Notes under the pieces: model-generated
Told to the model about the DNA's origin: nothing
Seen by the model: the letters and a program-made list of their open reading frames with translations, nothing else
The model's database searches: none
Translations under genes and position numbers: made by a program
NCBI GenBank assembly: GCA_035638855.1
Contig: DASQZD010000086.1
Location: 55,422-87,421 of the forward strand
Direction of reading: 5' to 3'
Source of the DNA: Nodularia sp. (in: cyanobacteria)
GTDB taxonomy: Bacteria > Cyanobacteriota > Cyanobacteriia > Cyanobacteriales > Nostocaceae
DNA: 32,000 bases
In this document: piece after piece, positions 1-25,410 of the stretch
Numbering within the stretch: position 1 is the first letter of the stretch
Layout: each line of letters opens with the position of its first letter

Positions 1-350
1 ATTCACATTTACCTCACGGTGATGTAACTTCCATGAAGTGGTCTAGCCTACTAGCGCTGGGGATTTCCGGCGGCTTATTACCTTGTCCTTCAGCCTTAGT
101 AGTTTTGCTGAGTGCGATCGCAATGGGACGAATTGGCTTTGGACTAGCCCTGGTATCTGCCTTTAGCTTAGGTCTAGCAGCCGTACTAACCGGAATCGGC
201 TTAATGCTAGTCTACGCCAAAAATCGGTTTGAGCATTTGCCACTCCAGATACCCAGAATCAAGATGTTACCCGTAGCAAGTGCCTTATGTATCACCCTAA
301 TAGGCTTAGGCATTACCTCACAGGCTTTACTCGCTCATCCCTGGAACTAG
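1..350 (+). CDS. Nickel/cobalt transporter-like membrane protein (NicO/RcnA family), C-terminal part; the 5' end lies outside the window
   Basis: The frame of ORF 33..350 stays open to the left edge (..HLPHGDVTSMKW..). Two or three hydrophobic helices are present. The motif GISGGLLPCPSA resembles the G-x-x-PCP-x-A signature of RcnA/NicO-type permeases. Confidence 0.55.
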   Translation, partial: SHLPHGDVTSMKWSSLLALGISGGLLPCPSALVVLLSAIAMGRIGFGLALVSAFSLGLAAVLTGIGLMLVYAKNRFEHLPLQIPRIKMLPVASALCITLIGLGITSQALLAHPWN

Positions 351-397
351 ATGAATCCAAAGCATTCAGTTTTGTAAAAATAACCTAAAACAACTAT

Positions 398-1132
398 ATG
401 TCACAAGCAATTAAACAATCCATCGTCTCAGAAAACAATCTATCTCATCCCTCCACCAAGTTGTCGCAAACAGCCTCCAAGAGTTTGAGTGAGCGTTCAT
501 TGAATTTTTGGCAAAAATCCCTAAGACGTTCAATCCCTATTGCCTCTGCTGCCATCGCTCTATCTGTAAGTGTTATCCTGCCATCTCAGGCATCCACTAT
601 TTCATATTCTGGTGACACAACAAACGCACCAAGTTTTAACCGTCCTGAAACCGAAGGCTTTGAAAGTGGTACAAACCCACCCACATCACTTTCTAGTAAT
701 GGCACAGCCGTTCCTTATTACAGCCAGCCTTTCTTAGTTGATACGACTGGACTCTATAATGTTGTAGGTTCTCAAAACTTCCTGGGTATCCAGTTCTTGT
801 ACCAAGACAGCTTCAACCCAACTACCCCATTAGTTAATTTACTTAATGGGAATGATCCTTTCCCAGATGAAGGCACATCTGGTTTTAGCGACTTGAGCTT
901 AACTGCCAATAATCAATATTTCTTAGTCACTACTGGATTTGACAATAGCAATAACAGTTTTGGTACTTTTACCAATACCATTACAGGCCCTGGCAATATT
1001 ACACTTGTCCCCGACCCTTCTTCAATCTCTGTCCCCGAACCTTCTTCAATCGCTAGCACAGTAATCTTTGGGATTTTTGGAAGCACCTTAATACTAAAGC
1101 GCAAACTGAAAAAGCTAAAATCTGTCAACTAA
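398..1132 (+). CDS. PEP-CTERM sorting-domain secreted protein
   Basis: The C-terminus VPEPSSIASTVIFGIFGSTLILKRKLKK has PEP, a hydrophobic helix and a basic cluster, which is a PEP-CTERM anchor. A signal-peptide-like RRSIPIASAAIALSVSVILPSQA|ST only begins near residue 43. An in-frame TTG at 500..502 may therefore be the true start. Confidence 0.75.
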   Translation: MSQAIKQSIVSENNLSHPSTKLSQTASKSLSERSLNFWQKSLRRSIPIASAAIALSVSVILPSQASTISYSGDTTNAPSFNRPETEGFESGTNPPTSLSSNGTAVPYYSQPFLVDTTGLYNVVGSQNFLGIQFLYQDSFNPTTPLVNLLNGNDPFPDEGTSGFSDLSLTANNQYFLVTTGFDNSNNSFGTFTNTITGPGNITLVPDPSSISVPEPSSIASTVIFGIFGSTLILKRKLKKLKSVN

Positions 1133-7646: not shown

Positions 7647-9896
7647 GTGCATGAAGACTTGCAGCGTGGAAATTATGTGGCAATATCAGGGATGGGAGGC
7701 GTAGGCAAAACCGAATTAGCTACCCAATACGCCAAAAGATATCAAGAGAGTTATGGCGGTATTGCTTGGTTCAATGATCGCAACAGTAATCTTGCTGCTG
7801 AAATTTTGGAGTTTTTTATCAAGCTTGGTTTGGAGATTCCCCAAGAACTAGGGGGAAAACTGTTAAGCCTAAAAGAACAAGTTGCTTGGTGTTGGTCTAG
7901 ATATCCTGACTCTACCTCGCCTATATTAATTGTCTTCGATGATGTCACAGACTTAGCCAACCTCCGCCAAGTCTTACCCGAAGACCAACGCTTTTGCGTT
8001 TTGGTGACAACTACACCACGAATTTTAGACCCGAATTTTATTCAAGAGATTTCTTTAGATGTTCTTTCTCCAGAAAAAGCATTAGAACTGTTAAAACGAT
8101 TGTTGGGAAACACAGACAGGCGAGTTGATAACCAATTAGAAGCTGCAACTGCAATATGTGAATGTCTGGGATATTTGCCTTTGGGGATAGAGTTAGTCGG
8201 AGGTTATTTAGTCCGCGACCCAGGACTATCTCTGAATACAATGTTTGAGAGGTTAAAAACCCAAAAATTAGCTGAAATATCTTTACAGCGAGAGCCAGAT
8301 TCTACCATTGGTCAAGCGCAACTGGGAGTCAAAGCAGCGTTTACCTTAACTTGGGAAAAACTTGACCCCCTCACACAACAATTAGGAAAATTTTTGAGTT
8401 TATTTGCTCCCCAACAGATTCTTTGGGATTTGGTGAATTGGGTGGCGACAGATGGTGGGAAAGCAGAAGATGAAGCAGCAACACAGCTAACTTGGTCACA
8501 AGAGGAAATAAACTCAGCCAAAAAGCAACTTTACGCACGTAACTTGCTGCAACTGGTAGAAGCTACAGAAGGAGAATATTATAAAATTCATGCTTTGGTG
8601 CGGTGGTTCTTGCAAGAACAGTTAACTAATTCTGGGGAAATAAAATCAGTTTTAGAAACAACCTTTGCTTCTGCCATGATATCTGTAGCTCATTACCTTC
8701 CCCAATCACCCACTTCTGAGGATATCGAAAGCGTCAAGGATGTTGTTCCCCATATTGAAGACTTAGGAAATAGGATAATTGCTGATATTCAGCCAGCAGG
8801 AGAAGCACAGATAAATTCTCCAGCATCAGTTCCCAATGATCAAGTAATTTGGATATTTGTAGGAGTAAGCAGATTTTATGCAGGACAAGGACTATATAAA
8901 TTAGCAGAACCTTGGCATGAGCAATGTGTAAATGTTTGCCAAGCTTTGTTTGCTGGCGACCATCCTGATGTGGCTACTAGCTTGAACAATTTAGGCGAAC
9001 TCTATCGTAGTCAAGGGCGGTACAGTCAAGCCGAACCTCTTTTCATTCAAGCCTTGGAGATGAAAGAGCGCTTGTTTGTCGGCGACCATTCCAATGTGGC
9101 TACTAGCTTGAACAATTTAGCTTTTCTCTACAAAAGTCAAGGGCGGTACAGTCAAGCCGAACCTCTTTTCATTCAAGCCTTGGAAATGACACAGCGCTTG
9201 TTTGCCGGCGACCATCCCAATGTCGCTACTAGCTTGAATAATTTAGGCGAACTCTATCGTAGTCAAGGGCGGTACAGTCAAGTCGAACCCCTCTTGATTC
9301 AAGCTTTGGAGATGACACAGCGCTTGTTTGTTGGCGACCATGCCAATGTCGCTACTAGTTGGAACAATTTAGCTCTACTCTACCGTGGTCAAGGGAAGTA
9401 CAGTGAAGCCGAACCTCTTTTCATTCAAGCCTTGGAGATGACACAGCGCTTGTTTGCCGGCGACCATTCTGATGTCGCTACTAGCTTGAACAATTTAGCC
9501 GAACTTTATCGTAGTCAAGGGCGGTACAGTCAAGCCGAACCCCTCTACAAAAAAGCCTTGGAGATGAGGCAGCGCTTGTTTGCCGGAGACCATCTTGATG
9601 TCGCTACTAGTTGGAACAATTTAGCTCTACTCTACCGTGGTCAAGGGAAGTACAGTGAAGCCGAACCTCTTTTCATTCAAGCCTTGGAAATGACACAGCG
9701 CTTGTTTGCCGACGACCATCCCAATGTCGCTACTAGCTTGAACAATTTAGCCGGACTCTACGACAGTCAAGGGCGGTACAGTGAAGCCGAACCCCTCTAC
9801 AAAAAAGCCTTGGAGATGTGTCAACGGGTATTAGGGGTTAATCATCCCACTACAGCGACAATTAAAGAAAACTTGGCAATTCTGCGACAACGTTAA
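7647..9896 (+). CDS. NB-ARC (STAND) NTPase with C-terminal TPR array; coding-like sequence continues upstream in frame to 7545
   Basis: The P-loop GMGGVGKTELA lies at 7689..7712. Other motifs are the Walker B-like LIVFDDV, the GLPLGIELVGGYL helical motif, and 7 full plus 1 partial 42-aa TPR units. The conserved pre-P-loop peptide YIPYRGSVHFVGREQELTRV is encoded at 7590..7646, upstream of the first canonical start (GTG at 7647). Confidence 0.8.
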   Translation: MHEDLQRGNYVAISGMGGVGKTELATQYAKRYQESYGGIAWFNDRNSNLAAEILEFFIKLGLEIPQELGGKLLSLKEQVAWCWSRYPDSTSPILIVFDDVTDLANLRQVLPEDQRFCVLVTTTPRILDPNFIQEISLDVLSPEKALELLKRLLGNTDRRVDNQLEAATAICECLGYLPLGIELVGGYLVRDPGLSLNTMFERLKTQKLAEISLQREPDSTIGQAQLGVKAAFTLTWEKLDPLTQQLGKFLSLFAPQQILWDLVNWVATDGGKAEDEAATQLTWSQEEINSAKKQLYARNLLQLVEATEGEYYKIHALVRWFLQEQLTNSGEIKSVLETTFASAMISVAHYLPQSPTSEDIESVKDVVPHIEDLGNRIIADIQPAGEAQINSPASVPNDQVIWIFVGVSRFYAGQGLYKLAEPWHEQCVNVCQALFAGDHPDVATSLNNLGELYRSQGRYSQAEPLFIQALEMKERLFVGDHSNVATSLNNLAFLYKSQGRYSQAEPLFIQALEMTQRLFAGDHPNVATSLNNLGELYRSQGRYSQVEPLLIQALEMTQRLFVGDHANVATSWNNLALLYRGQGKYSEAEPLFIQALEMTQRLFAGDHSDVATSLNNLAELYRSQGRYSQAEPLYKKALEMRQRLFAGDHLDVATSWNNLALLYRGQGKYSEAEPLFIQALEMTQRLFADDHPNVATSLNNLAGLYDSQGRYSEAEPLYKKALEMCQRVLGVNHPTTATIKENLAILRQR
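8946..9827 (+). repeat. Seven tandem 126-nt (42-aa) TPR-coding repeats with very high nucleotide identity
   Basis: The unit consensus is LFAGDHPNVATSLNNLAELYRSQGRYSQAEPLFIQALEMTQR. The 89 nt at 9348..9436 are identical to 9600..9688, exactly two periods (252 nt) apart. Confidence 0.9.
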
Positions 9897-19427: not shown

Positions 19428-21206
19428 TTAACTTTTCCCTCTCCTCTTCCTTGGAGGCGGACTTTGTGAGAGGATAAAATGATCCGGTGAATCATTTTCC
19501 TGAGCAATGTTGAGACGCAGAAATTGCGCCCATACTTGATCACTAAGTAAGTTTAAAGCTGTTTCAGGTTGGTGAGATGCGATCGCATGGATAATTTTTC
19601 GCCATCCTTGCTGTAAGGCTTCCATAAAAATTTCCTCACCGGAAAGCTGACTCAGTAGAGAAAGTGCAGTTGCTAAACTTATTGAATTATCTAATATTTT
19701 TTGTGACGTTAAATCGTGAACTATGATATTTAACCACACTGGGAGAAGTTCCCACCAGTGGCTTGCTTGTATCTCCTGAAGTGCTAGATTTTGCATACCC
19801 AGCGCCCCCCAAATGCATAAAGCTTCTACAGCTAATTCAAAATCGTGTTTTTCTAAAGCAATATTCCATTGTTTTTGGGCATGATTTTGGCAACCATGAG
19901 CCAGAAATTGATATGCTTCTTCTACTTGCTTGGGAATAGTAACTTGATAAACAGACTCACCACATGGTAAATATTCGCCACCACAGTCAACCGAGTCATA
20001 AAAACCATAAAAATGAATTTCTTGATCAACTATAACTTCTTTAACATGGGAATTTCCCATACAGAAAAATTGTACAGATGGTAAACCCTCAGGAGTTTTG
20101 ATAGCGCGGAGTTTTTTTTCTACTTCTGCTTGTTCTGGCGAAATTCCATATCCAATTAAAATCCACACTCCGCTATTAGCTAATTTTTGTAAAAGCGTCA
20201 AAAATTCTTTATTGATAACAGCTTCACTCAAGGAAGGAGAATAGATAATAATTTGCCTTTTAGCAGAATTTAACACCTCTCGAAAAGCGGGAATAACTTC
20301 AGTATCGCCTAGTTTTAAAGCTCCTTGGCTAATTTTTTTTAGTCTAGATTCTATTTCGTCATTTTTATATTTCAGAGTGGCTTTACGCTCCAAATCAATG
20401 GATTCATTGGACAATTTACATAAAGATTGCCAAGGTATTTTACCTTTACCTTGCAGCACTTCCATTCGTTTTGATGCTGATTCTAAAATTTGCTTACCAT
20501 TTCTGATTTGGATACTCAATTTATCTTTCCCAGCATCCCAAATCACAAACAAAGATATGTTTTTCCAGATTATTTGCGCCGGGGCTAAAACCTTACATTT
20601 AGTAACAATTTTTCCTAATTCGGGGACATGAAAATCTAAACCTGACAACTGAATACATTTCTGTAACTTCTCAAGTGATAAAGCAGATATATCGTTAATC
20701 TTGCGAGCAATCTTGATAAATTCAGCTAAATCAGGTAAATTTAAAGGAGCATCATTGCATGGTTCAGCATGAAATATCAGCTTTCCGTCTAAAGCATCGG
20801 AAACTGCATATATTTGCATAGGATAAGTCGGCTGTGGTACAGAACCTTTAGCGTAAAAAGTCCGCCCTTCATCTGTAACTGTAATCGGCGATGTTGCGGA
20901 TAAAGTTTGTAATGTTTGCAAATTTGCAGTGGTACTGCGGACAAATATAGAATCAAGTCCTAATATAGATGCTAATTCATCTTCTGTGGGTGGAGGTGAA
21001 AATTCAATTCCAGCGCGGATAATAAATTCTTCAAGTAGATTAAATTCGCGCGGTTCCTGAATGGATAACTCTACAGGAGTTTGATGTAAACTATAACGAA
21101 ATTCCCTCGCAGCTAAAACTGATAAATCAGGATTTTGCGCTGTAATTTCCTCTACTAAATTTCTGAGTTTGTCGTCAATAGGTTTAGCCGCAGCAGCGAG
21201 AAACAT
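19428..21206 (-). CDS. wHTH + single-HKD phospholipase-D-family nuclease-like protein with C-terminal helical domain
   Basis: Residues 388-402 read H-V-K-E-V-I-V-D-QEIHFY-G, which fits HxK(x)4D(x)6G (nt 19995..20048). Upstream is the PLD-like strand/helix pattern RQIIIYSPSL...LQKLANSGVWILIGY. The N-terminus LEEFIIRAGIEFSPPPTEDELASILGLDSIFVRST looks winged-helix-like. The ATG at 21206 has AAGGAGG 8 nt upstream at 21215..21221. Confidence 0.7.
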   Translation of the reverse strand: MFLAAAAKPIDDKLRNLVEEITAQNPDLSVLAAREFRYSLHQTPVELSIQEPREFNLLEEFIIRAGIEFSPPPTEDELASILGLDSIFVRSTTANLQTLQTLSATSPITVTDEGRTFYAKGSVPQPTYPMQIYAVSDALDGKLIFHAEPCNDAPLNLPDLAEFIKIARKINDISALSLEKLQKCIQLSGLDFHVPELGKIVTKCKVLAPAQIIWKNISLFVIWDAGKDKLSIQIRNGKQILESASKRMEVLQGKGKIPWQSLCKLSNESIDLERKATLKYKNDEIESRLKKISQGALKLGDTEVIPAFREVLNSAKRQIIIYSPSLSEAVINKEFLTLLQKLANSGVWILIGYGISPEQAEVEKKLRAIKTPEGLPSVQFFCMGNSHVKEVIVDQEIHFYGFYDSVDCGGEYLPCGESVYQVTIPKQVEEAYQFLAHGCQNHAQKQWNIALEKHDFELAVEALCIWGALGMQNLALQEIQASHWWELLPVWLNIIVHDLTSQKILDNSISLATALSLLSQLSGEEIFMEALQQGWRKIIHAIASHQPETALNLLSDQVWAQFLRLNIAQENDSPDHFILSQSPPPRKRRGKS

Positions 21207-24200
21207 CAACGAAACCTCCTTGACTATCTACAGTATGAGAAATCTCTAAATACATACTTCCGACTTTTCCCCCTTGACGGGTAAATAAATCGTGACAACC
21301 CACAATTACGAGTAATTCTTGGGCGCGAGAAAAAGCCACATTCACCCGTTCTGGTTTCTTTGCAAAACCGACATCACCTTGATGATTATTCCGCACCATA
21401 CTTACTATTACCACAGCGCGTTCCATTCCCTGAAATCTATCAACTGTACCTGTGCGAATTTCCAGCGAAGGAAAAAGTTCAGATTGTAAACGTTCATCAA
21501 TTTTTTTCAATTGCGCGCCATAGAATGTAATTACTGCAATTTCCTTTTTTGGTTCCCCATTGGCAATTTTAGCAGCCCAAGTATGCTCGAATTGCTGACA
21601 CAGGCGTTCAATGACATCAATTTCACGAGTATTAAAATAAGAAGTATTTTCCCGTTCTTCTTCAAATTCCAGTTCTCTGGGAATTTTTACCCATACCAGA
21701 TGGTGATTTTTTTGGATAATTTCCCCTGTTAAATTATGGGCGCGTTGAGTGTCAGGTTCTAAAAGTCCACATTCTAGTTTACCCTGATAAAACTGATTAA
21801 TCGCCCCCATAATAAAGGGGTGCATTCTATATTGTGTATTCAGCATTTGTTTGATGCTTTTATCAGCAGCTTCAAACTGAATTTTAAATAATGATTCTTC
21901 TAAAAATTGCAGTTCGGATTTGCTACTGCCAAGTGATTGGGCAACTTCTTCAACTGTGCTAGTATCAAGCATGGGTGGTAATTGTCGATGGTCTCCTACC
22001 AAGACTAACTTTTTACCTTTTAAAGCTGGGATGAGTAACTCTGGTGGAGTACATTTACTAACTTCATCGATGATGACGACATCAAAGGCTTTAAATTCTT
22101 GGGAAAAGTTGTAATTTGCAGCTTGTACGCAAGTGATACCGACGACGTTAGCGTTATCTAAATAAATGCGTCTTAAATCGTTGCGATCGCGCTCTGATGG
22201 ATTTTTAACTTTTGCAATCCAATCTTTGGTAAAATCCTGGTATCGGCTGAGATAAGTTTCTTCTTGATTCAGTTGGTTTTCCCAAGCATCAAACTGAGTT
22301 TTGATATTGTGTAAAAATTCCAGATTAAATAAATCTGTAGGGATATTTTCTGGCTGAAATTTATCAGGTATGTTTTTACAGAAATTTTCCCACCAATTTC
22401 TTGATAAAATTAAATCTTCGGTTGGTTGTATCTGTAGTTGCTGATCTAATTTATTGAGTTGGGCTTGGATTTTTTTGAGTTGCTTTTGAGCAAGTGCGTT
22501 TTCTTGTTCTATAATTGTTATTTGCTCATCTAAAGACGTTTTGATGTTTTCTAAGACTTGGAAAGGTGCAATTGATGAAATTAAAGTTTCTAAATTGCTA
22601 AGATGAGTAACCGCAGCATTCACCTGAGTTGCAAATTCTGAAGAATCTTCCCAAATTTTTGATTGCGTAGTCAGATATTCTGTAACTAAAGCCCGCAATT
22701 TATCAGGGAGATTTTGCTGCTGGTTGAGTAATTGCAAAATCTCGATAACTTGTGTAAGCTTGATATTAGCTGCTTCGATTTGAGATGAAGTCGCAGATAT
22801 TTGTGCTTGAGTAGTTCTGTGTTTTTCAAGTTCAATTAATTGCTGTTGGAAAGACTCAAGCTGTTGTTCAGTTTCAGCCTTAACTCGTGCGATACATTGA
22901 CGCGCATTTGCGAGGATATTGGTGAGTAAGTCTTCACTAACTTGTTTAATAGTAGAGTCGAGATTATTTAATTCCCAGGCTTTACCATATACTGTTTGCA
23001 TTCTCAGCAAAAACAACTGCGTATGTTCCACCAGTAATTGGCGCTGATGTGGGTTGAGGAGTTGATAATTTTTGAACTCTTCATAGATTTTACGCCATTG
23101 AGTGCGATCGCTCGCACATAGCACAATGGGAATTTGACTAAAATTTTGCTCTAAAAAGTAACTAAAATTATATTGTTTACCGATTCTATCAGCGAAGCCG
23201 CCCTCAGTCTCATAAGTCAAGGCTTTTTGTAAAGCCTTCCAATCTGGGAAATTAAGCTGATATTTTTTTGCTACTATAGTTAATTTTAATTGATTAGCAA
23301 ACATCAACAAACCCAATGGTAATTGCAGCAAATCTTCTGTTAATACTTGTCCTGATTGCTGGCATTCCTTAACTATTTGATATAATATCACAGGTGCTGT
23401 AGACTTCCATTCCTTAATAGCTGCAATCACATAATCAATTTCGCGTTGGCGATTTTGCCAACCTTGAATTGTCTGCTGTAAAATTTGCCGCTTGGCGATA
23501 AATTGCTGTTCATCTATTTCTGGTGAATTCAGATTTTGAGAATTTTGGGGGATAGCCGATACCGCTTCTGCAACTTCCGACATTACTAAAATGGCATCCT
23601 CTGCGTAATCGAATGCTATTCTAAAGTCAGCAATTTTATCAGCTACACTGTCACGCAACCAAACAGCCAACCCAAAAGCACCATAAGCAGGACGCACTAA
23701 ACCAAGTTCATCAGTCCACTTGATAGCTTCACGAACATTGGTTAAAAATTCTTTAACTACAATATTATCTTCTGTATATGGCTGAAGATATGGTAAACAA
23801 TTTGTGACTTCTGAAGCTTCCCAATTTATATTCGCTGCATTTTCTAGGAGATAATCTAAACCTAAATTGATAGATTCCACCTGCTTTTTCTTATTTAAAC
23901 TTTCCTGATAAATTTTTTCTTGAATTTTACAGTCTGCTGCTAAACTTTCCTTTTCCTGATTTAATTGATTTTCTTGGTGATTTAGCTCTAATTCTAGGTT
24001 AAAATAATCTGTAAATCTTGGTATTGCTGCCAATAATTCACTCAATATTTTAACATTTTCCAGACGTTTATTAAGACTACTTTCACAGTCAGTCGCCGTA
24101 TTTTCCAGCCATGTTTCAATAACTTGGTCTTCTAAAAATGGCTGTCCTTCCTCCCCAACTCTCTCCGCGCGTCCTTTACGTACAGCCCGAATAACTGGGT

Positions 24201-25410
24201 TATGAACTAATCGACTCAAAGCATTATCCACAGCTAAATTAGCTTGAGAAGCGATGAGAGTACGTCCACCCCGCAGGGCTATTTGATAACAAATCTCGGC
24301 AATCACGGTAGTTTTACCAGTACCTGGCGGTCCTTGAATAAGAACCAAATCTTCAGATGCTAATACCTTTTCCACTGCTGCTTTTTGTCCAGCATTAGCA
24401 GAAGATAATAACAAATCATCCGCTTGAAGTTCCACAGTTTTTTTCATCCGTCTTGCTTGGGAAGCGTCGAATAAAAAGTTACCCAAGTAGGGATTTTGAG
24501 TTTGTCCGTGTTTTAGTTGTTCTAAAGCTTCTTTCTTGCGCCGAACTTGTTGAATATCCCCAGCAGCATCAAAAAATAAAAATCCCTTCACTGGTGGCTG
24601 ATAACGTTGTGTAGCGATATATTCAGCTAATTCTCGTTCTAATTTAACTTTAATTAAACAATTTTTCGGATCAACTTTTTCAATTGAACCAAATCTAGGA
24701 ATTTTATGAGTAAATTTTCCTGTAGGAACAGTTTCCGAAAGTTTCACTTCTTGGTTTTTTGAACGTTTCACCCGTTCCCAGAAACTAGCGACATTTAAAT
24801 AATTTTGTTCAGAACCATCAAGAGTAGCTGAATTCACATCTACTTCAAAAGTAATTTGTCTGGTATTATTTCCATAATCATTACCGATAAAAGCTACACA
24901 AAACTGACGGGCTTTCGCAATATTTTCCTCAACTTGCAAAAAAGCTTTCCAAGCTTGCAATTGGTCTTCCGTAGGTATATGATCACCACACACTGGCATC
25001 TTTTCCACACGTGACAATGCTGCTTTGGGAATACCTAAACGATGTTGCTCATGAGGTAAAAGACGTAAACGAAAAGGAACAGCATAACCATCAGTGTGTC
25101 CCCGTGAAACTTGTAATAAACGAGTAGATAAAATTTTTAAACCACCGCGCCCATCTTCTTGAATAGCTGCAATTAAACCTAAAGTTTTGCCTTGCTTTTC
25201 CAGCTTTACAGGTAAGGGAAAATCATCTCTATCAGTTGCAATTGTTAACTGCCAAATTTCCTCATTTGGATTTTTTCCCGCACCTTGACGACGCACATAA
25301 AACAAATAAACTTGATCAGCTAATAAGTCTATTATCTCATCTTTAGCCACTGCTCCGACGCACTTATAGCTCCAGCTTTCTGAATTGTGATTGTTAGAAA
25401 AAGTGGGCAT
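21184..25410 (-). CDS. Upf1/Dna2-like superfamily-1 helicase (AAA_11/AAA_12 type) with ~330-aa unknown N-domain and ~700-aa coiled-coil insertion
   Basis: - Motif I: LIQGPPGTGKTT (nt 24307..24333).
- Motif Ia: TLIASQANLAVDNA.
- Motif II: VVIIDEVSK (DE at 22063..22068, residue ~1115).
- Motif III: LVLVGDHRQLPP.
- Motif IV: YRMHP.
- Motif V: TVDRFQGMERAVVIVS.
- Motif VI: RVNVAFSRAQ. Confidence 0.85.
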   Translation of the reverse strand: MPTFSNNHNSESWSYKCVGAVAKDEIIDLLADQVYLFYVRRQGAGKNPNEEIWQLTIATDRDDFPLPVKLEKQGKTLGLIAAIQEDGRGGLKILSTRLLQVSRGHTDGYAVPFRLRLLPHEQHRLGIPKAALSRVEKMPVCGDHIPTEDQLQAWKAFLQVEENIAKARQFCVAFIGNDYGNNTRQITFEVDVNSATLDGSEQNYLNVASFWERVKRSKNQEVKLSETVPTGKFTHKIPRFGSIEKVDPKNCLIKVKLERELAEYIATQRYQPPVKGFLFFDAAGDIQQVRRKKEALEQLKHGQTQNPYLGNFLFDASQARRMKKTVELQADDLLLSSANAGQKAAVEKVLASEDLVLIQGPPGTGKTTVIAEICYQIALRGGRTLIASQANLAVDNALSRLVHNPVIRAVRKGRAERVGEEGQPFLEDQVIETWLENTATDCESSLNKRLENVKILSELLAAIPRFTDYFNLELELNHQENQLNQEKESLAADCKIQEKIYQESLNKKKQVESINLGLDYLLENAANINWEASEVTNCLPYLQPYTEDNIVVKEFLTNVREAIKWTDELGLVRPAYGAFGLAVWLRDSVADKIADFRIAFDYAEDAILVMSEVAEAVSAIPQNSQNLNSPEIDEQQFIAKRQILQQTIQGWQNRQREIDYVIAAIKEWKSTAPVILYQIVKECQQSGQVLTEDLLQLPLGLLMFANQLKLTIVAKKYQLNFPDWKALQKALTYETEGGFADRIGKQYNFSYFLEQNFSQIPIVLCASDRTQWRKIYEEFKNYQLLNPHQRQLLVEHTQLFLLRMQTVYGKAWELNNLDSTIKQVSEDLLTNILANARQCIARVKAETEQQLESFQQQLIELEKHRTTQAQISATSSQIEAANIKLTQVIEILQLLNQQQNLPDKLRALVTEYLTTQSKIWEDSSEFATQVNAAVTHLSNLETLISSIAPFQVLENIKTSLDEQITIIEQENALAQKQLKKIQAQLNKLDQQLQIQPTEDLILSRNWWENFCKNIPDKFQPENIPTDLFNLEFLHNIKTQFDAWENQLNQEETYLSRYQDFTKDWIAKVKNPSERDRNDLRRIYLDNANVVGITCVQAANYNFSQEFKAFDVVIIDEVSKCTPPELLIPALKGKKLVLVGDHRQLPPMLDTSTVEEVAQSLGSSKSELQFLEESLFKIQFEAADKSIKQMLNTQYRMHPFIMGAINQFYQGKLECGLLEPDTQRAHNLTGEIIQKNHHLVWVKIPRELEFEEERENTSYFNTREIDVIERLCQQFEHTWAAKIANGEPKKEIAVITFYGAQLKKIDERLQSELFPSLEIRTGTVDRFQGMERAVVIVSMVRNNHQGDVGFAKKPERVNVAFSRAQELLVIVGCHDLFTRQGGKVGSMYLEISHTVDSQGGFVDVSRCCG

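Follow-up and report, generated by a model that had tools for sequence, protein, structure and literature searches.

Why would a helicase keep several hundred residues of helical sequence in the middle of its motor? The question is raised by a gene of the cyanobacterium Nodularia sp. that lies in a 32,000-nucleotide stretch of DNA (assembly GCA_035638855.1, contig DASQZD010000086.1, positions 55,422 to 87,421 of the forward strand), here called the window, and that encodes a superfamily 1 (SF1) helicase of the Upf1 family related to MkoA and CnuH. A first-pass annotation of the same DNA had proposed that a coiled-coil-like insertion of about 700 residues, reminiscent of the antiparallel arms of SMC and Rad50 proteins, splits the helicase core between motifs Ia and II. 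We found that the insert is real and that its predicted architecture, a jointed antiparallel helical hairpin with a globular tip, is well supported; what it does we infer from models and comparisons. The gene and the motifs on either side of the insert are located in the window as follows.

21184..25410, minus strand: Upf1-family SF1 helicase gene, MkoA/CnuH-like, 1408 aa, no kinase domain (open reading frame, Pfam, PADLOC, PDB and Foldseek).
24223..24333, minus strand: Walker A (residues 360-367) and motif Ia (387-396), the part of RecA1 preceding the insert (motif search).
22057..22068, minus strand: motif II, DEVS, residues 1115-1118 (motif search).

Walker A, GPPGTGKT by motif search, was present where motif I had been placed, at residues 360-367 rather than 360-368, and the segment carrying it and motif Ia was 96 % identical within Nostocales. 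The later motifs followed in the usual Upf1-type order (GDHRQLPP at 1139, QYRMH at 1193, FQGME at 1326 and VAFSRA at 1358). Pfam assigned AAA_11 (E 4e-44, split in two) and AAA_12 (E 5e-49) to the protein, a sequence search of the Protein Data Bank returned IGHMBP2 and UPF1 (E 1e-35) together with Dna2, Sen1, SETX, ZNFX1 and Aquarius, and Foldseek on the helicase core retrieved the same Upf1-family set (E 1e-16). With motifs I, Ia, II, III and V/VI distributed over two RecA-like domains, the protein is a Upf1-like SF1B helicase. Its Walker A and motif II lie 755 aa apart, and only residues 283-430 and 1084-1370 aligned to solved Upf1-family helicases. Because only these flanks align and IGHMBP2 has 58 residues at the site (chain 282-339), the net insertion amounts to ~600-650 aa within the ~750 residues between motifs Ia and II, which bears out the large insertion proposed earlier; the stretch singled out at the time, 22140-24090 on the minus strand, corresponds to helicase residues 441-1090. 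The insert replaces IGHMBP2 residues 282-339 and thus occupies the position of subdomain 1C, the "prong". Accessory domains 1B and 1C had both been placed here, and 1C holds, but 1B precedes motif I. The region that 1B would occupy (~241-300) consists of two short strands and stalk-like helices in the structural model described below.

AlphaFold2 (AF2) was run twice, on residues 230-1408 (core plus insert) and, because Foldseek with that whole 1179-residue model matched the helicase core only, on the insert alone (425-1090). The mean pLDDT scores (predicted local distance difference test) were 81 and 85 and the predicted template modelling (pTM) scores 0.54 and 0.51, respectively. The insert was all-alpha in both models, with helices of 62, 47, 53, 84, 41 and 40 residues, and pLDDT exceeded 90 over most of the long helices in the insert-only model. 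About 282 residues ascend and about 272 descend, joined by four short helices at 724-808, and a RecA1 strand restarts at residue 1089. The predicted parts, in chain order, are as follows.

23839..24132, minus strand: ascending proximal arm, helices 427-460 and 463-524 (AF2).
23680..23838, minus strand: ascending joint, short helices 533-546 and 550-569 (AF2; four-helix-bundle matches by VIA-align, model 127..529).
23281..23679, minus strand: ascending distal arm, helices 578-624, 634-686 and 699-708 (AF2).
22975..23280, minus strand: tip module, residues ~722-812, predicted four-helix bundle, homologue of the RecG N-terminus (NCBIfam, identity and fold).
22711..22974, minus strand: descending distal arm, a single 84-residue helix, 814-897 (AF2; hydrophobic period 3.72).
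22567..22710, minus strand: descending joint, helices 903-914 and 918-944 (AF2).
22147..22566, minus strand: descending proximal arm and base, helices 949-989, 998-1012, 1030-1069 and 1073-1085 (AF2), a part found also in all MkoA relatives and in the C-terminal half of Pfam AAA_11.

The best Foldseek matches of the insert were MukB, Smc5/6, condensin, Wadjet JetC, Rad50, the cohesin and MukB elbows, PrgA and a chemoreceptor hairpin, with E-values beginning at 1.8e-4 and TM-scores that were low, as expected for bendable rods. By VIA-align, two-helix antiparallel hairpins superposed on model ~61..567 at a root-mean-square deviation (rmsd) of 1.0-2.0 A; one example was the hinge-proximal coil of SMC (5h69_B, Z 11.8, rmsd 1.4 over 81 aa), and others came from cohesin (6yuf_A), Rad50 (5da9_A), the seryl-tRNA synthetase arm, ROP and the dynein stalk. 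Longer matches covered a condensin Smc arm (242 aa), the MukB elbow (326/352), a Smc5/6 arm (237/255) and a chemoreceptor (302/307 aa). These superpositions imply that helix 463-523 packs antiparallel on 949-990, 460 residues away, and hence that the two halves fold back on each other, as the first-pass annotation had suggested checking. From the helix lengths, the arm would measure ~25-35 nm if extended, and we infer the pairing of its distal part from helix lengths, alignment ranges and covariation.

The three heptad-like runs quoted in the first-pass annotation are present, at residues 479-512, 846-900 and 968-995. By a crude heptad score the insert looked no different from the remainder of the helicase, and Fourier periodicity was used instead. 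Hydrophobicity peaked at a period of 3.44-3.72 in 7/8 long helices, at a power reached by 1-17 % of shuffles (1.4 % for helix 814-897, period 3.72), and in the two longest helices no more than 50-59 % of a/d positions fitted one heptad register. The coiled coil proposed earlier thus survives as an all-helical hairpin but not as a uniform rod, being interrupted by helical joints and ending in a globular four-helix tip; rather than a canonical coiled coil, it is best seen as a jointed hairpin of helices, some segments of which are coiled coil.

Four observations bear on the hairpin independently of the model, the last of them, fixed length with drifting sequence, being taken up in the next paragraph. 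In an alignment with 33 distant relatives, the lengths of the ascending and descending strands co-varied (r = 0.97) and fell into matched up/down classes of about 158/196, 268/280, 416/408 and 480/440 residues. In one relative, P0124, in which Walker A and motif II lie 1159 aa apart, piecewise comparison revealed a tandem duplication of the ascending strand (511-706 versus 287-482, 56 % identity, E 2e-66) and a separate duplication of the descending strand (934-1084 versus 1102-1252, 47 % identity, E 2e-28), although self-BLAST of the whole protein gave no repeats. Duplication on both strands is what a paired arm needs to lengthen. Covariation between the two halves was measured as mutual information with average product correction (141 sequences, effective number 36); its sole sustained positive peak lay at i+j = 1470-1510, and the register from the structural superposition predicts ~1476-1500. 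Structural matches, matched length changes and covariation register, three independent lines, indicate that the insert is an antiparallel hairpin, and the SMC/Rad50-like arm proposed earlier holds at the level of predicted architecture.

Within Nostocales the arm was 40-66 % identical compared with 81-96 % for the RecA core, and among the orthologues sampled (63-90 % identity) the segment lengths were near-fixed at 80/190/125/170-174/109. Fixed length with drifting sequence is typical of the evolution of coiled-coil spacers. A mobile-element or low-complexity expansion was considered as the origin of the insert and rejected: the frame is intact, the lengths are fixed and the locus is syntenic. 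L, Q and I were enriched in the insert and G and P depleted (Q 10.3 versus 6.6 %, G 1.7 versus 6.7 %). The insert-coding DNA (window 22001-24000) has a G+C fraction of 0.36, below the 0.38-0.46 of its flanks, in agreement with the Q/N/K/I/L-rich composition.

The tip of the arm proved to be related to RecG. It matched NCBIfam RecG NF008170 at positions 4-102 (E 8e-13) and was 47 % identical over 92 aa to a RecG N-terminus, 39 % identical to RecG of the same genome and 35-49 % identical to the RecG N-terminal extension across the order. The tip segment also matched RecG-sized frames (~820-870 aa) in most of 121 Cyanobacteriales genomes. Its predicted fold (model 298-388, residues 722-812) is a BRIL-type four-helix bundle (Z 8.3, rmsd 2.6 over 85 aa). 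The RecG-like tip was found in 120/120 Nostocales-type orthologues and in none of the distant long-arm relatives, and residues 705-830 were missing or replaced in several orthologues from other families. It was better conserved than the proximal coil (62 % versus 40-49 % identity). No CxxC motif occurs in residues 711-812. For the tip, searches of PDB sequences and of the ESM Atlas yielded nothing usable, and Pfam recognised no domain in small RecG-N fragments or, in five distant relatives, in the arm or the tips. The RecG N-terminal extension is a terminal domain before the wedge domain, whereas its homologue here sits inside a coiled-coil hairpin, at the apex. RecG-N-like domains also occur in several tandem copies in small proteins (P0169, P0219, P0233 and P0237), once beside pentapeptide repeats; in this respect the domain behaves as a mobile cyanobacterial module.

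To which family the long-armed helicase belongs was apparent from PADLOC. Its matches to the MkoA profiles PDLC03920 (E 6e-112) and PDLC03921 (E 1e-105) were both split into two stretches and covered profile positions 866-1211 and 1094-1591. A HMMER search with the insert alone retrieved 126 representatives, about 60 of them RecG N-terminal fragments; the long representatives scored as MkoA (E 1e-83 to 1e-144). In the relatives, Walker A-to-motif II distances formed a cluster at 780-820, flanked by shorter (509-670) and longer classes (1050-1160), and kinase-fused relatives with a long arm occur in Chloroflexota (Thermosporothrix P0164, 786 aa from Walker A to motif II). By BLAST, the proximal arm (to ~585 and from ~945) is common to all MkoA-like relatives, and the distal part is replaced or divergent. 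A short-arm relative of 1246 aa (P0150 / P0255, Nostoc sp. C052) lacks residues 524-816 and has a 125-aa replacement; this copy is borne on a plasmid, unlike the chromosomal, syntenic long-arm copy.

No Ser/Thr kinase domain was found in the window's helicase by Pfam or NCBIfam, and its N-terminal 340 aa had no family. The N-terminal third as a whole (window 24340-25410, minus strand, residues 1-355) received no family assignment. Most Nostoc orthologues are ~85 aa longer and begin with an IF2_N domain (PF04760), which this helicase does not have.

The same genome carries a canonical Mokosh type I pair ~35 kb away on the same contig, past the end of the window (G000 contig C86, 113255-118265; L011 712-5722), so that two Mokosh-type systems with different arm lengths coexist in one genome. 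The canonical MkoA is 1182 aa long (Pkinase E 1e-41 plus AAA_11/12; PDLC03920 E 9e-215), and the canonical MkoB is 480 aa long, with PLDc_2 and a weak match to a winged helix-turn-helix (wHTH) domain (E 5e-4). In the canonical MkoA no more than 267 aa, likewise helical, separate Walker A and motif II; UPF1 has about 140 residues there. Because the canonical MkoA has only 267 aa at this site, we take a short helical hairpin to be the baseline of the family, on which the long arm is a clade elaboration. Homologues without the insertion in an unchanged gene context had been named in the first-pass annotation as a counter-indication, and the canonical pair goes part of the way, having the MkoA-MkoB order with an interval of 267 aa. 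An MkoA-like RecA2 fragment at a contig end (G000 contig C92, 144-1028, 364-aa frame, 35 % identity) may be another, third Mokosh-type gene split by the assembly.

Downstream of the helicase lies a partner gene, the start of which overlaps the helicase stop by about 23-26 nt.

19428..21209, minus strand: partner gene, MkoB/CnuE-like, with an N-terminal half, a phospholipase D (PLD) domain with a single HKD motif and a helical tail (PADLOC, motif and colinearity).
L015 91-954, L016 14-922, L017 ~113-937 and L018 83-964: PLD-less partners in genomes G114, G006, G043 and G086, respectively.

The partner matched PADLOC MkoB PDLC03922 (E 4e-20), was colinear with the canonical MkoB of the same genome (E 2e-10) and had one HxK(x4)D motif (HVKEVIVD, residues 388-395, window 20025-20048). 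Its Pfam match to PLDc_2 was weak (E 0.023), and Pfam gave no match to a wHTH domain in it, in contrast to the weak one in the homologous canonical MkoB. On the MkoA and MkoB profile scores, the HxK(x4)D motif and the colinearity with canonical MkoB, the two genes are classed from their sequences as a kinase-less Mokosh type I-like pair. In the four orthologous loci listed above, the partner is only 287-302 aa long and consists of the N-terminal half without the PLD domain; in G114, G006 and G043 the very next gene is GCS2, as in the window. The full partner was retained in two genomes from other families. All orthologous loci examined retain the N-terminal half of the partner, including those that have lost the PLD half, and the helicase arm was intact in the Nostocales-type orthologues aligned.

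The neighbours of the pair are genes for a deacetylase, FtsW/RodA, Mrp, HemF, GCS2, SpoU and an M23 peptidase. The order deacetylase - helicase - partner - GCS2 - SpoU - M23 was the same as in the window in three Nostocaceae genomes; at a fourth orthologous locus, from another family, the flanking genes of the window order were not found. The locus is chromosomal and syntenic, inherited vertically in Nostocaceae, and surrounded by housekeeping genes rather than by a defence island. About 10 kb from the pair, in otherwise housekeeping surroundings, the window holds a gene with NB-ARC and TPR domains (STAND/NLR-like) at 7647-9896 on the plus strand.

What, then, could such an arm do? We hold it, with moderate confidence, to be probable that the insert is an enlarged 1C arm with a proximal part that docks and regulates the partner and a distal arm and tip that tether the complex or self-associate. 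In the predicted structure, the subdomain 1C of this MkoA/CnuH-type Upf1-like helicase is greatly enlarged: the chain leaves RecA1 after motif Ia, runs outward for ~280 residues, turns in the four-helix tip, and returns antiparallel over ~270 residues to re-enter RecA1 before motif II, with a joint breaking the arm. The proximal hairpin (427-524 with 949-1088) is the part that the whole family has, and the distal arm and tip (~525-948) are a clade-specific extension, held in length and drifting in sequence. Situated at the nucleic-acid entry, the proximal arm may offer a docking and regulatory surface for the N-terminal, putatively winged-helix, half of the partner, which would be translationally coupled to the helicase, and ATP- and RNA-driven motion of RecA1 could be passed on to the PLD effector. 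The distal arm would set the RecG-N-like tip far from the motor at a fixed distance, where the tip could link the complex with a second copy or with a partner in the cell. Docking at the proximal arm is suggested by the gene overlap, by the universal retention of the partner's N-terminal half and by the multimer model published for CnuH and CnuE.

Several points weigh against this enlarged-1C reading. VIA-align Z-scores of 8-12 are usual for any long helical model and speak for arrangement, not homology; the pTM was only 0.51-0.54; and heptad periodicity from sequence was moderate only, with breaks in the registers. The length classes stem from only about four or five independent lineages, and the covariation rests on an effective number of 36, so that its z-values of 5-6 are naive. 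The canonical pair, with its 267-aa interval, implies that the distal arm is not required for pairing a helicase with a PLD protein, and orthologues with a PLD-less partner still retain the full arm. In addition, the CnuH-CnuE multimer model concerns a different branch and is flagged as uncertain by its authors; binding of the partner to the arm is here an extrapolation.

The alternatives are not mutually exclusive with the enlarged-1C reading. The strongest of them, rather unlikely in our estimate, makes the insert an oligomerisation arm: the tip, like an SMC hinge or a Rad50 hook, would join two helicases and so pair their single-HKD PLD partners in an assembled or activated state. In Nuc/Zucchini-type PLD nucleases, a single HKD motif implies a dimeric active site, and the partner has just one HxK(x4)D motif; the architecture resembles that of SMC, MukB and Rad50, and the tip is a separate module, better conserved than the proximal coil (62 % against 40-49 %) and found elsewhere in tandem copies. 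However, the tip has no CxxC hook and is a predicted four-helix bundle, not a hinge, tips differ between clades, and PLD-less orthologues retain both arm and tip. Mokosh type II, moreover, is reported to be monomeric (10.1101/2025.07.10.664194).

We give a small probability to the idea that the insert is an extended Sen1-type prong for targeting or obstacle sensing at the leading edge of a 5'-3' translocase, with recognition rather than effector control as its main role and with the RecG-N-like tip recruiting the helicase to a target that RecG visits (stalled forks, R-loops, SSB or the replisome). The insertion site is that of subdomain 1C, at the nucleic-acid entry and essential for Sen1 (PMC5452015), the tip is homologous to a cyanobacteria-specific N-terminal extension of RecG, and syntenic, vertical inheritance among housekeeping genes in Nostocaceae would suit such a role. 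That extension, however, gives no functional lead in Pfam, PDB or the Atlas, and the RecG-like tip is limited to the Nostocales-type clade whereas the arm is much wider.

A bolder reading, to which we likewise give a small probability, is that the arm is a working SMC/Rad50-like mechanical element on an SF1 RNA/DNA helicase, in which the RecG-N-like bundle, by associating with another tip or with a target, and nucleotide-driven movement of the arm would license the partner; the Nostocaceae copy might then serve a genome- or RNA-maintenance task of the host and share a binding partner with RecG. Takeover for such a task is conceivable because the gene is fixed at one chromosomal locus in Nostocaceae, often without the PLD nuclease.

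Finally, that the extended arm is a prediction artefact, in truth a compact multi-helix domain or a partly disordered linker whose length has no mechanical meaning, is very improbable: AlphaFold does tend toward long hairpins for amphipathic helical sequence, the pTM is ~0.5, the Z-scores are typical of helical models and the heptad registers are imperfect, but the two-sided length changes and duplications, the covariation peak at the predicted antiparallel register, the strict conservation of length despite sequence drift and the pLDDT above 90 over most long helices of the insert-only model all argue against it.

Mokosh is a common anti-phage system and a proposed bacterial relative of the MOV10L1-PLD6 piRNA machinery. 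In the literature searched we found no structural or mechanistic study of Mokosh type I, which according to one group could not be purified. A large helical insertion is itself already published, as a prediction, for the MkoA/CnuH helicase family, in the paper on CnuH (PMC11090510), and MkoA relatives carry it as well. The insertion claimed by the first-pass annotation is thus real but a known family trait, not peculiar to this gene; the helicase described here is a long-armed member, and for this window alone the arm is an instance of a trait described before. What this analysis adds is the duplications on two strands, the discrete length classes and the covariation test of the register, along with the four-helix tip fold, its restriction to one clade and the comparison with the canonical Mokosh of the same genome. 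On this evidence, a large MkoA/CnuH branch is predicted to carry a length-constrained, jointed, antiparallel arm with exchangeable tips. Arm truncations, tip swaps and the lone RecG-N module offer handles on communication between an SF1 motor and a nuclease, and the link between tip and RecG marks an unannotated domain that deserves characterisation.

Among known systems, Mokosh type I consists of a kinase-bearing MkoA and MkoB, and its phage protection depends on the ATPase and PLD sites; Millman et al. 2022 (10.1101/2022.05.11.491447) tested only systems of E. coli. As there, a gene for a Upf1-like COG1112 helicase is followed here by one for a PLD-family nuclease. Unlike there, the helicase has no Ser/Thr kinase and matches the MkoA hidden Markov models in two pieces only, and the locus sits among chromosomal housekeeping genes instead of a defence island; compared with the canonical MkoA of the same genome, Walker A and motif II are 755 aa apart instead of 267.

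The second relative is CnuH, the helicase of the CnuH-CnuE modules of Type II/III CoCoNuT systems and of their free-standing relatives (Bell et al., eLife 2024, PMC11090510). This UPF1-like helicase, likewise of SF1, is described as having, after Walker A, "a large helical insertion" that is coiled coil in part. The product of the gene downstream, CnuE, begins with an elongated wHTH to which a nuclease of variable type is fused (PLD in type III-C); in the AF2-multimer model of that study the CnuE wHTH lies on the CnuH insertion, with the authors' caution that the model is uncertain. By that description our helicase is like CnuH, with a large helical and coiled-coil insertion after Walker A of a UPF1-like motor, and the nuclease part of its partner is PLD, as in the CnuE with a PLD effector. 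The RecG-like tip and the matched length classes do not appear in the passages on CnuH that were consulted. None of the CnuB/CnuC McrB/McrC-like, TerY-P, SmpB-like or RelE-like domains was found nearby in the window, and because of the housekeeping neighbours and the absence of McrBC-like genes the pair is not a CoCoNuT proper.

Subdomain 1C of Upf1, IGHMBP2 and Sen1 occupies the same RecA1 site between motifs Ia and II, is all-helical and projects from the nucleic-acid entry side of the helicase channel, and Sen1 cannot function without it (PMC5452015). There it is a short rigid prong of about 55-120 residues, whereas here it spans ~650 residues as a predicted jointed hairpin with an apical domain.

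Membership in the SMC/Rad50 family was rejected, the head being an SF1 RecA-type helicase motor and not an ABC-type ATPase. The arm is also shorter, at 2 x about 280 residues, and has neither a hinge nor a zinc-hook fold. The likeness is one of architecture, and nothing points to homology (9-13 % identity, Z 8-12): as in SMC, MukB and Rad50, which gave the best structural matches, an NTPase is predicted to be split by an intramolecular antiparallel coiled coil with an elbow and an apical module, and the length of the arm is conserved while its sequence drifts.

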